In this document: piece after piece, positions 29,808 to 39,139 of the stretch
Position numbering within the stretch: the stretch's first letter is position 1
Layout of the letters: each line of letters opens with the position of its first letter
Source of the DNA: an uncultured Gaiellales bacterium
GTDB taxonomy: Bacteria; Actinomycetota; Thermoleophilia; RBG-16-64-13
Length of the DNA stretch: 64,000 bases
Direction: 5' to 3'
Assembly: GCA_964631965.1 (NCBI GenBank)
Contig: CAZWAR010000003.1
Span: 2,064-66,063 of the forward strand
Notes under the pieces: model-generated
What the model was told of the DNA's origin: nothing
The model's input: only the letters and a program-made list of their open reading frames with translations
The model's database searches: none
Made by a program: the position numbers and the translations under genes

Positions 29808-30809
29808 TCATTCGACGGCCTCACGGCGCGTACCGGGTACCAGCCTCGTGCGCACCAGGGATCGGTCGGTGGCCCAGCGAAGCACTGCAGGTGAGAACGT
29901 CACTCCGCCGTCGACCCCCATGTCAACAGTTCGCGTGGCGAACACGGCCCCATGCAGCCTCGTCCCCTCCAGGAACACAGCTCCCCCGTCAGCGACGATG
30001 ACCCCGTACACGTCCCCGCGTTCGCTCGCATCCACCGATGCCCCACCGATGACCACGAACAGAGCCGGCATGGTCGCCTCGTTCCCCCAATCGGCCGGTA
30101 TGGAGGTGGTCCCGGACCGGCGATCAAAGATTATGACCTGCGGACCCGGTGCCAGACCGTCCCGGGCGGGGAGACCGTCTGCACCGACAGCCGGCGCGGA
30201 GTCCATGCAAAAACGCCGCCAGCCGTCATCGAGGCCCCACGAACGCCCTAGCCCACTCAGGCTGACACCTGGACCGAGAAGTGGTGACGGTGAAGCCATC
30301 CTCACAAGTCCGGTCGGCTGAAGGCCTACGGCCTCCTCGGTCTGCAACCAGGCATTCGCCCGCCCGGACGCCCAGGTGACCTGATCGGCCACCAAGCCGA
30401 CGAAAGGCAAATCGAATCCGTCGCTTCCGCGCTCGATCCATGCAGACACCTCGACCGGCAACACCGACGTCTCATGCGCCGCGGTGACCTCGAGTAGCAG
30501 GTCCGGGCTCCCCGTCCCCGCGGCGACACTCGCCCACACCCCCGCCGGCCAGCCGTCGCGAGCGTCAAGTCGCCGCTCGAACGTACTCCAAGAACCGAGC
30601 AGGTCGTCGCGCACCCATGCCAGTGCGCTATCGTTCTCTTCCATCAACAGCCGTCCCCTGGCCTCGGCTTCGTTGCCGCTGTCGAGACACACCGCCACAG
30701 CGGCCACCACCTGGACCAGCACCGCTACCCCCAGGCAGACGAACAACACCAACAGGAGAATGGACCCCTCCTCGCGGGCAGACGCGGGCCGCCCGGAGAG
30801 GCCGCTCAC
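29808..30809 (-). CDS. GspK/ComGG-like pilus-associated membrane protein (N-terminal TM helix, no Glu+5)
   Basis: In-frame GTG at 30809 overlaps the TGA of the upstream pseudopilin (GTGA coupling). The N-terminus is VSGLSGRPASAREEGSILLLVLFVCLGVAVLV. It is the last gene of the pseudopilin run. Confidence 0.5.
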   Translation of the reverse strand: MSGLSGRPASAREEGSILLLVLFVCLGVAVLVQVVAAVAVCLDSGNEAEARGRLLMEENDSALAWVRDDLLGSWSTFERRLDARDGWPAGVWASVAAGTGSPDLLLEVTAAHETSVLPVEVSAWIERGSDGFDLPFVGLVADQVTWASGRANAWLQTEEAVGLQPTGLVRMASPSPLLGPGVSLSGLGRSWGLDDGWRRFCMDSAPAVGADGLPARDGLAPGPQVIIFDRRSGTTSIPADWGNEATMPALFVVIGGASVDASERGDVYGVIVADGGAVFLEGTRLHGAVFATRTVDMGVDGGVTFSPAVLRWATDRSLVRTRLVPGTRREAVE

Positions 30810-31465
30810 CGACCCACCTCGGTTGAAGCCACCATTTCCGGCCGACCAGGACCACGATCGGCTCGGCCGACCAGATGAATGAAAACCGTGTCGAGCTGAC
30901 AAAGCGTAGTGGCCGGCATCGCGTCGCATTCTTGCCCGAGGCAAACGAAAGAGAACCTCGAGCTGGTGGTGTCCACGTCCTCCAGCATGGTCTTGCTGTC
31001 GCGATAGAGGGCGTGAGGGAAGACCTCGGGCATGAGAGCCGGACAGAAGCCCCAGCGACGCATGAGCGTCCCCCCTATCAACTCCCATTCGACTATGGTC
31101 GACACTCCCGAATCAGACAACCGGAGCAACACGAGCTGGGATGGCGTGGCCTGCAGAACCAGCCCGTCGACTTGGAAGGCGCAGCCGGAAGCGGTGGAGA
31201 GCCGCACATCCTGCTCGAGCCTCGCCACCGCCACCCGCCCCTGCGCGACCCACACCGCGTTGTCTCCCTCGACTGCCGCTAAGGACTCCAACGACACCCA
31301 GATGGGTGCCACTGCGAGTGCCAGACACAGGGCAAGAGCAAGGCCGAGGAGCACCTCTATGAGCGAATAACCCTCCGAGCCGGCGGCTCCGACCCCCCTC
31401 CTCTCGGGCCGGCACGCCCCCCGCATGCTCCTGACCCACCGGTCGAGGCGTACCGTCCGAGACCT
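30806..31465 (-). CDS. Prepilin-type N-terminal cleavage/methylation domain pseudopilin
   Basis: ...GSEG|YSLIEVLLGLALALCLA (G-1, E+5). The start is assumed at MRSRTV. Confidence 0.65.
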   Translation of the reverse strand, partial: RSRTVRLDRWVRSMRGACRPERRGVGAAGSEGYSLIEVLLGLALALCLALAVAPIWVSLESLAAVEGDNAVWVAQGRVAVARLEQDVRLSTASGCAFQVDGLVLQATPSQLVLLRLSDSGVSTIVEWELIGGTLMRRWGFCPALMPEVFPHALYRDSKTMLEDVDTTSSRFSFVCLGQECDAMPATTLCQLDTVFIHLVGRADRGPGRPEMVASTEVGR

Positions 31466-31475
31466 CATAACCCGT

Positions 31476-32252
31476 CTAGAAGTAGAGGTCGACACCCCGC
31501 CCCTCCTCCATCCACCACCATTGCCATTGACCGCCGAGCGCCGCCCCGGCCCAGCCTGACACCGGCGGATCCGCGGTGAAGACCAAGCCTGGCGGATGCG
31601 CCATGACCGGCTCCGATCCCCAGGAGACGTGCATGGCGGACGTGCCCGCCTGGGGGCGATGGACCACCACGGCCGGACTGAACGAGGGCAACCCTGCCGA
31701 GACGTTCGCTGCCGGTGGGCCTCCGGTGGGAGCGGGGACGACCGACCGCCGGGGCGGCCCCCAGATTCCATCGCCGGTTCGGACCCGGGCGATCACTTCG
31801 TCGCCTTCGAGCCCTGTCCACTTCCAAGGTTCTATCCGCGTCTCTCCAGGCAGGTCGGGTTCGGCGCTCGCGTCGAGCACGGGCGTCTCCAGGAGGAGGA
31901 GCCCGTCCGCCCATATGCCCAGCGTGGCCTCCGATGTCGACGAACACGCCCCGGGCGCGGTGCTCACATGTAGAACCGGCCCCGGACCCCACCAAGCCCC
32001 AGCCACTCTGGGGCCCCACTCCCAGGCCGCGGCCGTAGCGGGTGCCCAGGCCGCGGACTGAGCGCCGGCAGCCTGTCTCGCCAATCGAGACCGTTCGACC
32101 ACACCGGCGAACGCTGTGAAGAGAGGAACCACCAGGATCCCTACGAGCGCAACGGCCGCGATGACCTCCAAGAGTATGAAGCCGTCTCGCAACCGCAGGA
32201 GGCGTCGCAGGGTGCGCGCTCGCCTCCTTTTCACTGCGCCGCCTCCTCGCAA
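31476..32252 (-). CDS. Prepilin-type pseudopilin
   Basis: ...LRDG|FILLEVIAAVALVGILV prepilin motif; 258 aa. Confidence 0.65.
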   Translation of the reverse strand: MRGGGAVKRRRARTLRRLLRLRDGFILLEVIAAVALVGILVVPLFTAFAGVVERSRLARQAAGAQSAAWAPATAAAWEWGPRVAGAWWGPGPVLHVSTAPGACSSTSEATLGIWADGLLLLETPVLDASAEPDLPGETRIEPWKWTGLEGDEVIARVRTGDGIWGPPRRSVVPAPTGGPPAANVSAGLPSFSPAVVVHRPQAGTSAMHVSWGSEPVMAHPPGLVFTADPPVSGWAGAALGGQWQWWWMEEGRGVDLYF

Positions 32253-32761
32253 GACCTCCTGGTGAGGCCACTCTCCAGACGCACCGTGACCCGGTAGTCG
32301 TCGCCCGGAGCTTTGAAGTAGACGGAGCCGGCCGCATTGGGATGACCGGAGAGAGCGGCAAAGACGACGATCACCCCCTGGGCGGTCCGCCAGCGGGGAA
32401 CGTTTGCGACCTCGGCCACTGGGGGAACGGCGCTCCCGAGGTCCCAGCTGCTGCCACCCGGGTCCGCCGCTACGGCCAGGCCGGCGGGTGACGATTCGAG
32501 GACTTCATTCGTCCCCTGCCACACTGCTCCGGTTTGGGCGCACGCTGCCGCCACCTGCCATATCTGGGCTCCGCCCCTTGCCTCCACCGTCTCGATACCC
32601 CGGGGCAGCAGCACCAGCCCGATTGCGAGACAGATCCCCAGTAGTACGAGGACGACCAGCAGCTCGACGAGCGAGTGCCCCGATTGTCCGGAAACTACCG
32701 GGTGGGCGGAGGCTGGATGAGCGGCCCGCGAGCGAAGCCTTGAGTGCGTCCCACTTTGCAT
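32231..32761 (-). CDS. Prepilin-type pseudopilin (GspH-like position)
   Basis: ...SGQSG|HSLVELLVVLVLLGI (G-1, E+5). The N-terminal extent is uncertain. Confidence 0.6.
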   Translation of the reverse strand: MQSGTHSRLRSRAAHPASAHPVVSGQSGHSLVELLVVLVLLGICLAIGLVLLPRGIETVEARGGAQIWQVAAACAQTGAVWQGTNEVLESSPAGLAVAADPGGSSWDLGSAVPPVAEVANVPRWRTAQGVIVVFAALSGHPNAAGSVYFKAPGDDYRVTVRLESGLTRRSCEEAAQ

Positions 32762-32933: not shown

Positions 32934-33479
32934 CTACCAGCCTAGTCCCGCAGTCCCCTCGATGACCTTCACCTTCACGTAGCCGCTCTCAGAAACGTTC
33001 AGCGCGTTGACCTGGATGCCGAACATGTTACCGCTCTCGCTCTTGCACGCCAGGTCGACGATATCCCCCGACTCTGGGTAGTACTCCACCTGGTTTGCCG
33101 CCGCGTCGGCGGTTAGCGCGTCGCTTATCCAGGCCGGTTCCGTGCTCACCAGATCATCGTCGGCCCGAATGAAATCGATACTCGGCTCGATGGCGTGAAG
33201 ATCGTCCGCTTCGATCAGTGTGTAGTCGTTTGTATCGACGAAAGCGCCCTGGATCGCGGTGAGAGAGTTTCGAACCAGCGAGTAGGCCGCTGCGTCCTGG
33301 GCGTGCTGGCGCTGCCCCATGAAGGTGGGGATGGCAATGGTGGCCAACACGGCGATGATGATGATGACGACCAGCAGTTCGATGAGCGTGAACCCGGCCG
33401 CGGCGTGACTCCCGACTCGGAGACTCCGCAGCATCCGCTGCCAGCGCCTGTTCCACATTATCTTCTCGATGGTCTTCAT
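32934..33479 (-). CDS. Type IV pilin (PilA-like major pilin), paralog 1
   Basis: ...AAAG|FTLIELLVVIIIIAVLATIAIPTFMGQRQ; C-terminus ...GTAGLGW. Confidence 0.8.
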   Translation of the reverse strand: MKTIEKIMWNRRWQRMLRSLRVGSHAAAGFTLIELLVVIIIIAVLATIAIPTFMGQRQHAQDAAAYSLVRNSLTAIQGAFVDTNDYTLIEADDLHAIEPSIDFIRADDDLVSTEPAWISDALTADAAANQVEYYPESGDIVDLACKSESGNMFGIQVNALNVSESGYVKVKVIEGTAGLGW

Positions 33480-33513: not shown

Positions 33514-34158
33514 TCAGGACGTGCTAGGGGTCGTGTTGTTCAAGTCCAGGGTGAGCCCCGATGCCGCAGCTATCCGACGCAACTCGTCCACTTCTCCCGC
33601 TCTTCCCTGCCGCTCGAGGAGCGAGATCAATACCACATAGGCGTGGGGATAGGAGCTGTCAGTCACCAGTGCCCTTCGCAAGCTGGCCTCAGCCGATTCT
33701 TCTTCTCCGGCGGATAACTGGGCCGAGCCCAAGAAGCTGAGATACTGAGCCGTGGGCTGGAGCCGACACGCTTCCTCGAATACCTGCACGGCTTTCCCGG
33801 CCTGCTCTTGGTGGTTCAGATAGTTGAACCCCAGTTCCACCCTGATCTGGGCTTCTCCGGGGTCCATCTCCACAGCCTTCTCCTGGACGGGAAGCGCTTC
33901 ATCCCACCGACGCTGAACGTACAGCACGGCGGCGAGAGCTTTCGTGGCAGAGACATCATCGGGATGCGCCGCCACGCATTGCTGGTAGAGCTTCGCGGCT
34001 GCGGCGAGATCCCCGGACTCCATCGCCTTCCCGGCTTGAGAAAGCGTACCGGAGCAGCTCGCCAGGGCGACGGCCAGCAGCACGAACGAGACCATGGATA
34101 CCCAGCGGGTGATGGTCGCTCTGTGGTTTGTGTCTGCCCGGTCGGGTCTTTCCTGCAT
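33514..34158 (-). CDS. TPR-repeat lipoprotein
   Basis: 214 aa with a signal peptide and lipobox (ALASCSG) and TPR-like repeats. Located between the two pilin paralogs. Confidence 0.65.
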   Translation of the reverse strand: MQERPDRADTNHRATITRWVSMVSFVLLAVALASCSGTLSQAGKAMESGDLAAAAKLYQQCVAAHPDDVSATKALAAVLYVQRRWDEALPVQEKAVEMDPGEAQIRVELGFNYLNHQEQAGKAVQVFEEACRLQPTAQYLSFLGSAQLSAGEEESAEASLRRALVTDSSYPHAYVVLISLLERQGRAGEVDELRRIAAASGLTLDLNNTTPSTS

Positions 34159-34292: not shown

Positions 34293-34775
34293 TTACCAGC
34301 CGGCGCTGGTGTCGCCGTCGATGGTCTTGACAAAGGTCGTCGAGCCTCCGGCGCCCTTGTCGGTCACCACGCCGAACACGTTGCCGGATTCGCTAGCGGT
34401 CGCGATCTCGAAAGTGGTGCCATCGCCGAAGAAGTCCACGGCAGCGTCGGTAGCCACCTGGGTCGCAGCCACGGCCGGCGTATCCGCGCAGACGCCGCCG
34501 TCGGCGTCTTTGACGAATTCAATCGACGGCTCGATAGCGTTGAGCTCGTCGCCGGTCACATCATACGTGCGGGAGTCGACATAGGCGGATTCCAGGGCGG
34601 TCATGGCATTGCGGACGAGTGATTTAGCAGCTGCGTCCTGGGCTTTCTGACGCTGGCCCAGGAAGGTCGGGATGGCGATCGCCGCCAGGATGGCGATGAT
34701 GATGATCACCACCAGGAGTTCGATGAGGGTGAAACCTTTTTCGCCCTTCATCCTTTTGTGGATCTTCATGAACAT
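34293..34775 (-). CDS. Type IV pilin (PilA-like major pilin), paralog 2
   Basis: MFMKIHKRMKGEKG|FTLIELLVVIIIIAILAAIAIPTFLGQRQ...SAGW. GGAGGAGGA Shine-Dalgarno 8 nt upstream of the start. Confidence 0.8.
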   Translation of the reverse strand: MFMKIHKRMKGEKGFTLIELLVVIIIIAILAAIAIPTFLGQRQKAQDAAAKSLVRNAMTALESAYVDSRTYDVTGDELNAIEPSIEFVKDADGGVCADTPAVAATQVATDAAVDFFGDGTTFEIATASESGNVFGVVTDKGAGGSTTFVKTIDGDTSAGW

Positions 34776-35312
34776 CGTGTGTGTTCCTCCTCCTGTTTGT
34801 TCGCGGACTCTTTTTGTTTGAGACCGCGAACCTTTCGCGGCCCAGCACGCCAGGTGTGACGTACCGCTTTCTTCATCGGCCAGTGTGGGGCAGGACTTTA
34901 GGGTTTCTTTTGCGACTTTGGTGCAATTTTGGCGCGGCTGTCTACTGAGAGCTCGCACACGCACGTCGAACGCGCCCTATATGGACCATTCGAAGCCCCG
35001 AACGGCACCTCGGCCTAAAGGCCCAACCCGCGCCTGCCGATACTCCTGACAGGACTAGAACGGGGGTCAACGTGGTCCCGGCCGAGTCTTCTCGGATCCC
35101 TCCTCCAGAGAGGGTCATTCATCCGCCATGCGGCCGAAACCTCAAGGCTTGTGCGGTTCTGCCGATACACATGGAGAACCCATCGAGGGAGGCACCGAGG
35201 CATGAATGCTTCAGCGCTCAGGTATAGGATCGGTCCGGCCAGATCCTCAGATGATCGCCCGTGTCCAGACGCGCGCCGTCGCGGAACCGGAGACCGGCAC
35301 CGCCTGCGCGAG

Positions 35313-36881
35313 ATGGTTGGACGCACTCGAGGCTTCACCGTAGTCGAGGTGCTGGTCGCGGGTCTGGTGCTCGTGGTCGGCCTCATCTTCATCGCCCACT
35401 TCTTCACGGCCTCGGCCATGCGCGTGCTCGCCTCCGACACCCGGTCGGTCATGGCTCAGATCGCCACCGAGGAAATCGAGACGATCCGCGGTCTGCAGTA
35501 CCAGGACATCGGCACGGTCGGCGGCCACCCGCCCGGGCAACTCGCAGCCGTCGAGACCGTCAACAGGGAAGGGAGCGACTTCGAGATCCAGCGAGACATC
35601 ACTTACTTCGAGGACGACGCGTACTCCGGGCCGTATCCGGCCAACTACCGCCGGGTCACAGTCACCGTTACCGCGCTCGATAGCGACGCTCTCGACCCCG
35701 TCGTCATGACTACGAACATCGCGGGTGGTGCGAAAGGAGGCACCCTCGACATCACCGTCACCGATCTGAGCGGTCAGGGCCTGCCGGACGCTCCCCTCGT
35801 CATCTCGGACAACCTGCTGGTCCCCCACGTCTTGATAAACGCCCCCACCATCCGCACCGACGGAACCGGCCATCTCCAGGTGCCCGGCTTGACCGAGGAC
35901 CCCAACGGCGGCTATTTCGTCAGCGCGAGTTACCCGGGCTACAACAGCGCAGCCCTGGAACAAGGGGTAGTCGTCGCGACGGGCCAGACCACGGTGGTCC
36001 AACTGATCATGGACAGGCTTGCGACCATGCACATCCACCTGACGGACCAGTATGGCACCGCCCTCTCAGGGGTCCCTCTCCGGGTCACGGGATTCCTGTC
36101 CGTTAGCCCATGGACCTTTGAGCAGACAGTCACCACCGATAGCAGCGGCAATGCCACACTCGAGGACATCCGGTTCTCGACCTCTCTCGAGCCGTACTTC
36201 ATCGAGCTCGTCACACCGCACAATCCGCCGCTGGCTCTGCCCACCGGCGTGAGCGCGCCTGCCATCGATTCCAGCTTCCTGCCTCTCCCGGACGGTAAGA
36301 TCCCGGTAATCCTCGATCCCGGTCAGACCCAAACTGTCAACCTCGTCGTATCCACCGGTCCTGCCGTCACTTCCGTAAGTCCGGCCAGCGGCGGCCCGTC
36401 CGGCGGCACCACAGTTGTCATCAACGGTGCGAACTTCAATGGAGCCACCGCAGTCAAGTTCGGCAGTACCGACGCGGCCAGCTTCGTCGTCGACTCCGCT
36501 GCCCGCATCACTGCGGTCTCTCCGGCAGGCTCCGGCACCGTAGACATCACCGTGACCACACCCAACGGCACTTCGGCCCAGGTCGCGGCCGACCAGTACA
36601 CCTACGTGTCGCTTCTTCCCCCAACGGTGCAAGCTGTGAGCCCCAGCAGTGGCTACCGGGGTGGCGGCACGACGGTAGTCATCACCGGCACGAACTTCGT
36701 CAACGTGACCAAAGTGCAGTTCGGATACCGGGATGCGGACAGCTTCATCGTCGAGTCCAGTACGACGATCCGGGCCGTCACACCTTCGGGCTGGGGCACT
36801 GTCGACGTGACCGTCACCAATTCGGCGGGGGCCTCAGATACCTGGTGGGGCGACTGGTTCACATACACCTGGCGCAGGTAG
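35313..36881 (+). CDS. Modular prepilin-type protein with beta-sandwich and two C-terminal IPT/TIG domains (putative pilus adhesin / minor pilin)
   Basis: MVGRTRG|FTVVEVLVAGLVLVVGLIF prepilin leader; internal PEGA/CarboxypepD_reg-like segments; two IPT-like repeats (PAVTSVSPASGGPSGGTTVVINGANF..., PTVQAVSPSSGYRGGGTTVVITGTNF...). Confidence 0.7.
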   Translation: MVGRTRGFTVVEVLVAGLVLVVGLIFIAHFFTASAMRVLASDTRSVMAQIATEEIETIRGLQYQDIGTVGGHPPGQLAAVETVNREGSDFEIQRDITYFEDDAYSGPYPANYRRVTVTVTALDSDALDPVVMTTNIAGGAKGGTLDITVTDLSGQGLPDAPLVISDNLLVPHVLINAPTIRTDGTGHLQVPGLTEDPNGGYFVSASYPGYNSAALEQGVVVATGQTTVVQLIMDRLATMHIHLTDQYGTALSGVPLRVTGFLSVSPWTFEQTVTTDSSGNATLEDIRFSTSLEPYFIELVTPHNPPLALPTGVSAPAIDSSFLPLPDGKIPVILDPGQTQTVNLVVSTGPAVTSVSPASGGPSGGTTVVINGANFNGATAVKFGSTDAASFVVDSAARITAVSPAGSGTVDITVTTPNGTSAQVAADQYTYVSLLPPTVQAVSPSSGYRGGGTTVVITGTNFVNVTKVQFGYRDADSFIVESSTTIRAVTPSGWGTVDVTVTNSAGASDTWWGDWFTYTWRR

Positions 36882-36885
36882 AGCT

Positions 36886-37596
36886 ATGAACAACAAGACA
36901 ATCTCATCGAAGGCCCGCTTCTGGCTCTCGCTACGGAGCCCCAGAGGATTCACGCTGATCGAACTGCTGGTGGTCTGCCTGACCGCGGGCATCCTGGGTA
37001 TGGCCATCCTAGGCGTATACGAGAGCGTCATGCGCTCGTGGGCCGACACCAGCCACCGCATCGTCAACCAGGACGACGCGCGCTACGCCATCAACGAGAT
37101 CGCCCGCTACCTCCGCATGGCTGAGTCCTCGGCCTCCAACCTCTCGTCCCAGTCGGACGCAATCGCTACGGCCACGGCGAGCGAGCTCGTCTTCTACGCC
37201 GATATCAACGGCGATGGACTGGCCGAGAAGTGCCGGTACTACCTGGATGGTACGACTCTCCGGCTGGCCACCCTTCCCCCGGATACCTCCGACAGCCCGC
37301 CTACCTACCCCACTGAGTACGTCACCGACGGAGTCGTCATCATGCAGGGCATCCAGGACCCCAATCTGTTTACGTACTACAGGCTGAACCCGGCATACGC
37401 CCTCAATCCCATACCGGAGAATGACACCCTGGAACAGGTGGTCAATCCCGCTTCAGCGGCCGATCTGCGGAGCATTGTCGCCGTCGACATCCGTCTTCGG
37501 GTGAACGAGACTCCCGGCTTGCCGAAGGCCAATGTGGCCTTGGACACCCGTGTCCAGATCCGCCAGCGCTACAACGGAGGTCTCAGTGGAGTCTAG
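36886..37596 (+). CDS. PilW-like minor pilin (prepilin-type)
   Basis: ...SPRG|FTLIELLVVCLTAGILGMAILG; 236 aa. Confidence 0.65.
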   Translation: MNNKTISSKARFWLSLRSPRGFTLIELLVVCLTAGILGMAILGVYESVMRSWADTSHRIVNQDDARYAINEIARYLRMAESSASNLSSQSDAIATATASELVFYADINGDGLAEKCRYYLDGTTLRLATLPPDTSDSPPTYPTEYVTDGVVIMQGIQDPNLFTYYRLNPAYALNPIPENDTLEQVVNPASAADLRSIVAVDIRLRVNETPGLPKANVALDTRVQIRQRYNGGLSGV

Positions 37597-39139
37597 ATCT
37601 CGCACCATCGGCCGTCTACCGGGTCGCCTCGGCCTGCGACTGCAGAGCGAGCGCGGTTACGTGTTGATCCTCGCCATGCTGGTGTTGGTAGCCATCGGTA
37701 TGGCCTCGGCCGCCCTGCTCTCGGCGATATCCGTGAACCAGCAGCACGTGTCCCGCGACCGGTCCTACTCGCAGTCGCTCACTGTGGCGGAAGCGGGCTT
37801 GAACCAGTACCTCTGGATGGTGGCGAGCGGAGAAAGCTCGCGCAGCAACGGTTTCGCCATCGCCGGCAACACCGAGGCCGATGACCCCTTGTTCAAGGAA
37901 TTCGAGTTCAACGACATCCACGATGCCTCGGTCAAGGGTGTGTACGCCACGCAGGTGTCCCCTCCCAGCGCAACGAACCCGAACGTGACCGTGACGGTCA
38001 CCGGGCAGGCGACCTCGCCCATGGACACTCCGAGAACCGTCACTGCTTCTCTCGGGCGTCCCTCGTTCAGCCAATACCTGCTGCTCACCAACGACGAGGT
38101 CTGGATCGGTGGGCCGCTCGATCGCGTCTGGCACGGCAAGACCTTCTCGAACACCGGCATCTGTGTGGACACGGCCAACCTCGTCGAGACGATGTCCTGT
38201 TCCAGGGCCACGTATTCCAGCAGCATGTTCGGAGGCACTCGCAACGGCGTCTGGTCGGGCTACCTGTATACAGTCCCCCTCAACGATCCTTCCCGGGCGC
38301 TGTGGCAGTTCCCCGTGCCGGCCATCAGCTTCTCGACGGTGACCTCGGACTTCGTCAATCTGAACAGCCTGGCCGTAGGCAACGGGGTGAACCTACCGTA
38401 CTCAACAAGTACTTCGCACGGAGAAACCCAGGGTTGGTATATCAAGCTCCTACCGGACGAGAAGTACCAGATCAAGCGAGTGACCGCGGAAAGTGAGTCG
38501 ACGGGCGGGAGCGGCGGCAGCCTCAGCTACGTGAACCCCAGTTCCCCGGTTCCGAGCACGATTCTTAGCTACCCGACCAACGGCGTCATCTACGTGAACG
38601 ACAATGTGTGGGTGGAGGGCACCGACATCGATGGGCGCATCACCATCGCCAGTTCCGGGCAGCTCAACCCAACCGGCAAGAACTCGGCCACCTCCATCCA
38701 CATCGTGGGCAACCTCACCTACTCCCACAAGGATGGCACGGTCGCCGTGGGCCTCATCGCTCAGAACGACATCGAGATACCCCGATACGCGCCTTTGGGA
38801 GCGGGCGGTTCCGTCTCCCTGCAGGACATGGAGATCGACGCCGCGCTCATCGCGCAGCAGGGCAGAGAGTCCTGCAACGCGGCCGATTCGCTCAACAACG
38901 CATACGGGCCCGTCCGCGACATGCTCACCATCTACGGTTCGGTCAGCTCGTACCACACGCCCTATCGCAGCACGGTCAACAACTACGGTACGACCCTGGG
39001 CGGCTTCGCCAACGGCACGAACACGTACGACCCCTGGCTGCTGAACGACCCGCCGCCGTACTTCCCCACGGTCGGGAGCTACCAGATCCTGAACTGGCAG
39101 GAGTTGCCCAATACCCAGTCGGTGCTTCCCAGCCCATGA
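37586..39139 (+). CDS. PilX-like minor pilin with large C-terminal beta-helix-like domain
   Basis: GTG start after a GGAGG Shine-Dalgarno. PilX_N-like segment ERGYVLILAMLVLVAIGMASAALLSA...LTVAEAGLNQ. C-terminal repeated VxVxGxxIxGxI strands. Confidence 0.6.
   Translation: MESRSRTIGRLPGRLGLRLQSERGYVLILAMLVLVAIGMASAALLSAISVNQQHVSRDRSYSQSLTVAEAGLNQYLWMVASGESSRSNGFAIAGNTEADDPLFKEFEFNDIHDASVKGVYATQVSPPSATNPNVTVTVTGQATSPMDTPRTVTASLGRPSFSQYLLLTNDEVWIGGPLDRVWHGKTFSNTGICVDTANLVETMSCSRATYSSSMFGGTRNGVWSGYLYTVPLNDPSRALWQFPVPAISFSTVTSDFVNLNSLAVGNGVNLPYSTSTSHGETQGWYIKLLPDEKYQIKRVTAESESTGGSGGSLSYVNPSSPVPSTILSYPTNGVIYVNDNVWVEGTDIDGRITIASSGQLNPTGKNSATSIHIVGNLTYSHKDGTVAVGLIAQNDIEIPRYAPLGAGGSVSLQDMEIDAALIAQQGRESCNAADSLNNAYGPVRDMLTIYGSVSSYHTPYRSTVNNYGTTLGGFANGTNTYDPWLLNDPPPYFPTVGSYQILNWQELPNTQSVLPSP

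Follow-up and report, generated by a model that had tools for sequence, protein, structure and literature searches.

ComZ (PDB 6QVI), the tip pilin of the competence pilus of Thermus thermophilus, combines a pilin domain and a solenoid of about 380 residues in a chain of about 550 amino acids; it binds DNA and pairs with PilA2. When its structure was described, its pilin domain was matched to GspK and its solenoid to an ice-binding protein, and its location at the tip was argued on steric grounds (PMC6561018). The cyanobacterial PilX proteins, divided into the subfamilies PilX-Com and PilX-EPS, are terminal core minor pilins devoid of Glu5, in which an ice-binding-like beta-solenoid interrupts the pilin fold. 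This solenoid has been proposed as a tip plug replacing PilY1, and two separate minor-pilin sets prime two kinds of filaments in these bacteria (bioRxiv 10.64898/2026.02.12.705559). In type II secretion, the tip pseudopilin is represented by GspK/XcpX (PDB 3CI0 and 5VTM), which carries an alpha-helical insert. The gene described here, named F, encodes a protein that shares with GspK a basic leader, a Gly, a hydrophobic helix and the absence of Glu at position +5, and in which the insert is predicted to be a beta-solenoid. We consider it probable, with good though incomplete confidence, that F is the terminal cap minor pilin of the priming complex of a type IV filament, and thus the functional counterpart of GspK and PilX.

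In the 64-kb stretch of DNA that was analysed (the window), gene F closes a compact operon of the minus strand composed, in this order, of pilin A, a TPR protein, pilin B, and the genes C, D, E and F (Table 1). The first genes of the operon resemble type IV pilins rather than GspG. Pilin A is likely the major pilin and the first gene of the operon, and the TPR protein found between the two pilins carries a lipobox-like LASC. The product of gene C is weakly GspH/ComGD-like (NCBIfam GspH with an E-value of 2.4e-5, below the curated cutoff) and its size is conserved. For the Glu5-bearing pseudopilins D and E, a PDB sequence search recovered only N-terminal helices in the case of D and no match in the case of E, and neither was assigned to GspI or GspJ. 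The GTG start of gene D and the stop codon of gene C share the bases GTGA, and gene E probably starts at GTG 31495, within an ORF spanning positions 30806 to 31771. The overlaps are of 4 nt for both C/D and E/F and of 20 nt for D/E, which fits a stoichiometric co-production. The five other proteins of this minus-strand set comprise 160, 181, 176, 252 and 229 amino acids with the chosen starts. With its 333 residues F is the largest of the set, as the initial annotation had proposed (about 330 residues), and it indeed closes the run, since, in a module that is conserved, three pseudopilins with Glu5 precede it. This position and the tight coupling to gene E mirror the arrangement gspH-I-J-K.

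Table 1. Coordinates of the features of gene F and of its operon in the window. A slash marks the position following the conserved Gly of the prepilin-type motifs; residue numbers are those of F.
Feature	Coordinates	Strand	Remarks
Candidate promoter, flagellar/WhiG-type motif TAAA-N16-GCCGAT(GA)	34875..34900	-	About 100 nt upstream of pilin A
Pilin A	34293..34775	-	ATG 34775 with strong GGAGGAGG Shine-Dalgarno; G/FTLIELLVVIIIIAILA
Pilin B, second pilin paralogue of the operon	32934..33479	-	G/FTLIELLVVIIIIAVLA
Gene C, GspH/FimU-like pseudopilin, mature 148 aa	32231..32761	-	G/HSLVELL; N_methyl motif, E-value 8.5e-6
Gene D, Glu5-bearing pseudopilin, mature 234 aa	31476..32234	-	G/FILLEVI; GTG start
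Gene E, Glu5-bearing pseudopilin, mature 187 aa	30806..31495	-	G/YSLIEVLL; GGAGGAGG Shine-Dalgarno
Shine-Dalgarno-like GAGGTGGG	30813..30820	-	Also codes for the conserved EVGR C-terminus of gene E
GTGA start/stop overlap of genes E and F (4 nt; translational coupling)	30806..30809	-	Read directly
Gene F CDS, 333 aa, probable cap minor pilin	29808..30809	-	GTG start, TGA stop at 29810-29808; translation, NCBI twin, GC3
Leader, residues 1-15, basic, last residue invariant Gly15	30765..30809	-	Family alignment
Alpha1 helix, residues 16-72	30594..30764	-	AlphaFold2 helix H16-72, pLDDT about 95
Pilin-type antiparallel beta-sheet, residues 77-130	30420..30581	-	Ends with the conserved ERGRDGxDLP motif
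Predicted beta-solenoid head domain, residues 139-305	29895..30395	-	
Most conserved segment, residues 307-333, short helix and two terminal strands	29811..29891	-	Family conservation

The operon is opposed, on the plus strand, to a divergent set that includes a PilV-like protein with two IPT/TIG domains, a PilW-like pseudopilin and a protein of 517 amino acids (535 in the mechanical ORF) having a Gly-Tyr-Val-Leu-Ile-Leu N-terminus and no Glu5; several relatives of this last protein are named PilX by JGI. The window consequently holds two divergent minor-pilin sets, each closing with a large protein devoid of Glu5. F and the 517-aa protein were considered as possible paralogues and this is not supported, BLASTP and hhalign giving only a weak match of the N-terminal helix (31%); beyond this helix the two proteins are not detectably homologous. 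A Cys-rich ORF of 149 amino acids located downstream of F was rejected as a member of the operon: it is conserved in all loci alongside RNase Z rather than F, and where an additional gene has been inserted behind F, it remains linked to RNase Z. The remainder of the window is made of housekeeping genes (recG, riboflavin genes, priA, metK, recA, rny, ftsK and pnp, among others). No gene for a prepilin peptidase, a pilus assembly ATPase or a platform protein was detected within the 64 kb, nor any gspD, E, F, C, L or M gene, and no type II secretion genes lie near F.

The product of gene F begins with VSGLSGRPASAREEG/SILLLVLFVCLGVAVLVQVVAAVAVC, and a single long uncharged segment was found in its sequence, in agreement with the single N-terminal hydrophobic helix described initially. 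The leader is followed by Gly15-Ser16, between which a prepilin-peptidase site is predicted, and by a Leu at position +5 instead of a Glu. The first 26 residues of alpha1 (16 to 41) are uncharged and correspond to alpha1N; the conserved positions of the helix are Cys +10, Gln +18 and Cys +26, together with E-x-x-G-R at residues 49-53. In the family, the Gly and the Ser of the Gly-Ser site are each present in 56 of 57 members, behind an Arg-rich leader of variable length (5 to 52 amino acids). Substrates of prepilin peptidase do not usually have a Ser at +1. The position +5 is occupied by Leu or Phe in 59 of the 63 sequences having a residue there, the others showing Met, Val or Trp, and by Glu in none of them. 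The absence of the Glu+5 signature noticed in the single sequence therefore holds across the whole family. At the other end of the protein, residues 307-333 follow the consensus LRWATDRSLxRxRLVPGTRxE and correspond to the elements H307-316, E318-323 and E329-332 of the predicted structure.

A monomer model of F was built with AlphaFold2 on an alignment of 68 sequences and reached a pLDDT of 92.2 and a pTM of 0.83; a run on the single sequence of F gave a pLDDT of 41 and no usable model. The model displays a 57-residue helix and a four-strand sheet, followed by successive short strands as is usual in beta-solenoids; a short helix then leads to the two terminal strands (318-332). A pilin-like domain and a triangular beta-solenoid of the ice-binding-protein type are thus present in one predicted chain, the solenoid representing about half of the modelled protein (about 170 residues). 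The best overall structural match of the model is ComZ: at E-values of at most 1e-3, Foldseek retained only three ComZ chains (best E-value 1e-4, probability 0.98). The corresponding TM-scores, 0.24 and 0.18, have the low values to be expected when two-domain proteins differ in size, so that the match concerns the architecture and the local structure and not a rigid-body superposition. The strongest structural matches overall are ice-binding proteins, and GspK is the top match among the structures of pilins and pseudopilins. The four-strand sheet module matches GspK, XcpX, GspI and about 15 further pilin structures. The order of the elements (sheet, solenoid, helix, two terminal strands) is compatible with the insertion of a solenoid between the penultimate and the last strand of the pilin sheet, as in the tip pilins of the ComZ and cyanobacterial PilX types.

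A direct search with F recovered 75 relatives sharing 31-50% identity, all unnamed and none with a Pfam domain; the few that carry a source name come from Thermoleophilia metagenome-assembled genomes (MAGs). An exhaustive profile search among 1.84 billion cluster representatives (E-value up to 0.001) detected only 152 matches to the family. In a collection containing one genome per species, gene F occurs in 40 loci, all from MAGs, which are labelled Actinomycetota, Actinomycetes, Thermoleophilia or Gaiellales, with the exception of one labelled only "bacterium"; the members of the family are known from MAGs alone. The order and the sizes of the module are kept in most of these 40 species-level genomes. 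The mature proteins measure about 145 and 152 residues for the two pilins, 148 for C, 223-241 (about 232) for D, 187-192 for E in most homologous loci and 302-348 (about 318) for F. Glu5 is found in every member of the module save F.

The initial annotation had stated that the sequence of F resembles nothing that could be placed, and this stands for direct searches. F has no Pfam match at E-values up to 10 and no NCBIfam match up to 1, and none of the 68 members of the family matches Pfam (E-value up to 1) or NCBIfam. No PDB sequence is recovered with the profile of the family at E-values up to 10. Concerning the profile comparison with GspK, ComGG and PilX that had been proposed at that stage, neither F nor its 68 relatives directly match the models of GspK, PilX_N, ComGG, DUF7305 or DUF3494. 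In particular, none of the 68 members matches the Pfam family T2SSK, F does not match NF037980 of NCBIfam (E-value up to 1), and neither F nor any of the 68 relatives matches PF14341 or PF23981. However, the comparison of profiles with profiles does link the family to proteins bearing a PilX_N domain. The weakest matches of the exhaustive search form a related actinobacterial group (A2) of proteins of 340-440 residues, whose N-termini are PilX-like and whose C-terminus ends in VPNTWRELQP, and hhalign aligns the family of F (A1) with A2 from end to end (98.85%, E-value 4e-17). The N-termini of A2 match weakly the GspK model NF037980 over the N-terminal 60-100 residues (best E-value 2e-4, 20.8 bits against a cutoff of 130), and the A2 profile recovers from the PDB only non-significant pilin N-termini. 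A search seeded with A2 reaches proteins carrying PF14341 (PilX_N), occasionally with PF23981 (DUF7305), one of which bears the NCBI name "PilX N-terminal domain pilus assembly protein". Compared with 28 proteins bearing PF14341 (group A4), the family of F aligns only over the C-terminal 100 columns (95.5%, E-value 1.4e-8). Judged from these profiles, F is a remote and unannotated relative of the PilX_N group, lying outside the definition of that family in Pfam.

From these data we infer the following role for F. Its translation would be coupled to that of the preceding pseudopilin gene E, and the protein would be inserted in the membrane by a class-III-type signal made of the basic leader, the Gly and the hydrophobic alpha1N, then probably cut after Gly15 by a prepilin peptidase. 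F may next nucleate, together with the pseudopilins D and E that carry Glu5, a small initiation complex similar to GspIJK, to which the GspH-like protein C, proposed as a GspH/FimU-type adapter, would join the major pilins A and B. Through Glu5, a subunit pairs with the N-terminus of the one lying above it. As F has no Glu5, no subunit needs to sit above it, and it would end up at the tip of the filament. The beta-solenoid would then lie on the filament axis, at its top, and serve as a plug or an adhesive head, with a putative ligand, as has been proposed for Thermus ComZ and cyanobacterial PilX in organisms without PilY1. The initial assignment to GspK/PilX-type tip pseudopilins is hence retained for the coupling, the absence of Glu+5 and the terminal position, and must be modified for the head, where a predicted solenoid stands in place of the alpha-domain of GspK. 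F works like GspK and PilX in this scheme, and it is no member of the GspK family, since the beta-solenoid replaces that domain.

Three other explanations are much less likely than a cap minor pilin. The one that survives best, and which we nevertheless regard as unlikely, is that F is a bitopic membrane protein or surface adhesin that never enters a filament, retained by an uncleaved signal anchor and acting as an accessory, for instance a PilY1-like partner or a component of the platform. Such an anchor would account poorly for the Gly placed before the hydrophobic segment in nearly all members and for the basic leader that precedes it, both as in prepilins. The 57-residue helix is packed on the sheet shared with GspK, XcpX, GspI and other pilins, the gene occupies a gspK-like position tightly coupled behind three pseudopilins, and the C-terminal region is homologous to that of pilus proteins with a PilX_N domain.

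The similarity of the solenoid to ice-binding proteins evokes, on the other hand, a secreted or surface protein of DUF3494 fold, binding ice or polysaccharide, exported by an ordinary signal peptide and only a passenger of the operon. This second explanation appears very improbable. The similarity to DUF3494 proteins is one of fold only, no Pfam match being found for F or for the 68 members at the thresholds given above, and the solenoid constitutes only about half of F, where it is fused to the pilin-like module of residues 16-130. Most of the 40 genomes moreover keep the gene within the pilin module. ComZ yields the same ice-binding-protein match without having an ice-binding role (PMC6561018).

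The reading of F as a cap minor pilin uses the GTG start at 30809. On the minus strand, this region reads GAG GTG GGT CGG TGA, the ORF of gene E terminating in EVGR with its TGA stop codon at 30808-30806. The initial annotation had recognized an in-frame GTG overlapping this stop codon as GTGA, and this is what is read on the minus strand: GTG 30809-30807 is in frame with the ORF 29808-31088 and lies 279 nt (93 codons) downstream of ATG 31088. The sequence GAGGTGGG, at 5 nt from the GTG when measured from its GAGGTG core, is a plausible ribosome-binding site for gene F. Downstream of GTG 30809, no further in-frame start is encountered before the conserved Gly-Ser motif, and the next ones (TTG 30752 and GTG 30749) would truncate the conserved helix. 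Across positions 30810-31088, GC3 is 0.72 in the frame of gene E versus 0.505 in the extended frame of F, the real genes of the window having values of 0.75-0.84; the roughly 280 nt upstream of GTG 30809 are thus read in the frame of the neighbouring gene E. In a collection of 5.8 billion proteins, a protein sourced from NCBI (P0001) is identical to F across exactly 333 amino acids. An NTGA overlap with the stop codon of the upstream ORF opens gene F in 17 of the 22 parsable loci, namely 16 homologous loci and the window itself, with an upstream ORF of at least 100 amino acids ending in VGR or VAR before the stop codon. A motif search found a prepilin motif in this upstream ORF for 12 of the 17 loci, and the E/F junction GGGTGGGnCG[AG]TGA is kept in most of them. 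GTG 30809 is therefore favoured over ATG 31088 on three independent grounds, namely GC3, the identical NCBI product and the conserved NTGA overlap, and the choice made initially on grounds of parsimony proves well founded. The third explanation, that the real gene is the 426-aa ORF starting at ATG 31088 (the longest in the mechanical ORF list, with an ATG start and an overlap of 283 nt with the upstream gene), is hardly credible given the GC3 of the overlap and the 333-aa form called by NCBI, and because conservation of the family starts only a few residues before Gly-Ser, behind leaders of variable length, while the VGR terminus of gene E is itself conserved.

The candidate promoter of the operon ending with gene F is the motif TAAA-N16-GCCGAT(GA). 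It matches the flagellar/WhiG consensus as given in PMC8325347, from which type IV pilus genes of Rubrobacter are reported to be transcribed. A simple scan for sigma-70 promoters and terminators yielded nothing informative. In its relaxed form, TAAA-N14-17-GCCGAT, it occurs twice in the window, against 0.08 expected copies. Both copies are located in the intergenic region of the two pilin operons, one per strand, each pointing into its operon. In 27 of 42 loci the motif occupies the equivalent position, and 14 of these 27 show the divergent pair. A bolder reading, which we consider less likely than not, is that this basal lineage of Actinomycetota might produce two type IV filaments from one pool of pilins, each filament having its own set of minor pilins and a different Glu5-less cap (F with 333 residues and the PilX-like protein with 517 residues) under a shared pair of divergent promoters of the WhiG/flagellar-sigma type. 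If this is true, a compact solenoid cap would act as a minimal substitute of PilY1 setting the function of the filament, e.g. DNA uptake versus adhesion or motility, and a two-filament scheme would exist in bacteria usually regarded as single-membraned (monoderm).

A function is thereby offered for a conserved unnamed family, which counts 152 cluster representatives among 1.84 billion and has no match in Pfam or NCBIfam. For a specialist, F would be a sensible annotation rather than a surprise; the practical gain is a better annotation and a candidate tip adhesin or receptor for these pili. With about 170 residues, its predicted solenoid is a small example of its kind and could serve as a model of a tip plug without PilY1.

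According to the predicted structure, the closest architecture to F is that of ComZ or of cyanobacterial PilX, rather than that of GspK proper. F and ComZ share a pilin domain and a solenoid, but no similarity is detectable between them in a PDB sequence search, and F is shorter in both the whole chain and the solenoid. Cyanobacterial PilX, compared here by its description, is similar in lacking Glu5 and in having a solenoid, and the two minor-pilin sets of cyanobacteria resemble the two divergent sets of the window that end in Glu5-less proteins; it differs in phylum, F coming from a Thermoleophilia-like lineage of the Actinomycetota. The PilX_N proteins (PF14341, some with DUF7305/PF23981) also present a Gly followed by a hydrophobic N-terminus without Glu5. 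Their C-terminal solenoid turns and terminal strand are homologous to those of F (VPGSWRDF versus VPGTRRE in F), whereas the middle parts show no relationship in either length or sequence. F does not represent a new kind of system, since GspK/PilX caps and solenoid caps are both known. The family, the lineage and the compact size are new, and the solenoid-capped design of the priming complex, described for Thermus and cyanobacteria, would also occur in an uncultured lineage of actinobacteria that branches early.

The hydrophobic N-terminal half-helix (alpha1N) of F, the 333-aa gene product without Glu5 proposed as a beta-solenoid cap minor pilin, carries conserved cysteines, at +10 in 65/66 and at +26 in 57/68 members of its family (counted from the residue after the predicted prepilin-peptidase Gly). 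Among the Glu5-bearing pseudopilins of the same operon, a cysteine is often present in alpha1N at +15 in E and at +16 in C. Conserved cysteines within the membrane-embedded alpha1N are unusual among pilins. Further along F, the junction motif is invariant or nearly so and may represent a metal-binding or hinge loop. The features of the region are listed in the table.

Features in and around the two divergent pilin operons
Feature	Position	Strand	Remarks
Cys-rich ORF, 149 aa	29295-29744	-	CRECEVICERVVSPQHCLDSGC...; just downstream of F
Junction motif of F, E-R-G-R-D-G-x-D-L-P	30420-30434 region	-	F residues 126-135; where pilin sheet meets solenoid
Cys-bearing alpha1N segments of F, E, C	30687-30764, 31300-31370, 32640-32690	-	membrane-embedded helices
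Overlap of D with probable GTG start of E	31476-31495	-	20 nt
GTGA overlap, C/D	32231-32234	-	coupling additional to E/F
Pilin paralogues A and B	34293-34775 and 32934-33479	- and -	alpha1N near-identical, heads differ
TPR protein	33514-34158	-	lipoprotein-like signal MVSFVLLAVALASC; between A and B
Flagellar/WhiG-type promoter motif, two divergent copies	34875-34900 and 35016-35041	- and +	between both pilin operons
PilV-like minor pilin	35151-36881	+	RGFTVVEVLVAG; NCBIfam PilV E 2e-5, below cutoff
PilX-like protein, large, Glu5-less	37586-39139	+	517 aa, NCBI call; mechanical ORF start 37532

The Cys-rich ORF lies shortly behind F in 42/42 loci (39-76% identity) and has no match in Pfam or NCBIfam. 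In two loci (L002 and L030) an extra gene is inserted behind F and the ORF remains adjoining RNase Z, which makes it a probable member of the RNase Z unit. Within the operon, the C/D and D/E overlaps add to the translational coupling; gene E probably starts at a GTG, which is preceded by a Shine-Dalgarno sequence, GGAGGAGG.

The divergent operon encodes PilV-, PilW- and PilX-like proteins. The PilV-like protein, modular and unusually large for a minor pilin, ends in two IPT/TIG domains (Pfam E 2.5e-22) and may be an adhesin. The PilX-like protein, encoded by the last gene, has the N-terminus ERG|YVLILAML and no match in Pfam; JGI gives some of its relatives the name PilX or PulG. Its family (47-83% identity) is far better conserved than that of F, with which no homology is detectable outside the N-terminal helix.

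Pilins A and B share the alpha1N GFTLIELLVVIIIIA[IV]LA..IAIPTF.GQRQ, and some related genomes contain three paralogue copies. The position of the intervening TPR gene is kept in the single locus compared (L001). The TPR protein is reminiscent of TPR lipoproteins of the PilF/Tgl type, the secretin pilotins of two-membrane bacteria; such a protein is odd for an actinobacterial lineage.

The two promoter motifs, TAAA-N16-GCCGATGA and TAAA-N16-GCCGATAC, are the only matches in the whole 64 kb, where 0.08 would be expected. The motif is kept at the equivalent site in 27 of the 42 loci compared, 14 of which carry the divergent pair. As putative promoters, these motifs would fit the WhiG control reported for the type IV pili of Rubrobacter (PMC8325347).
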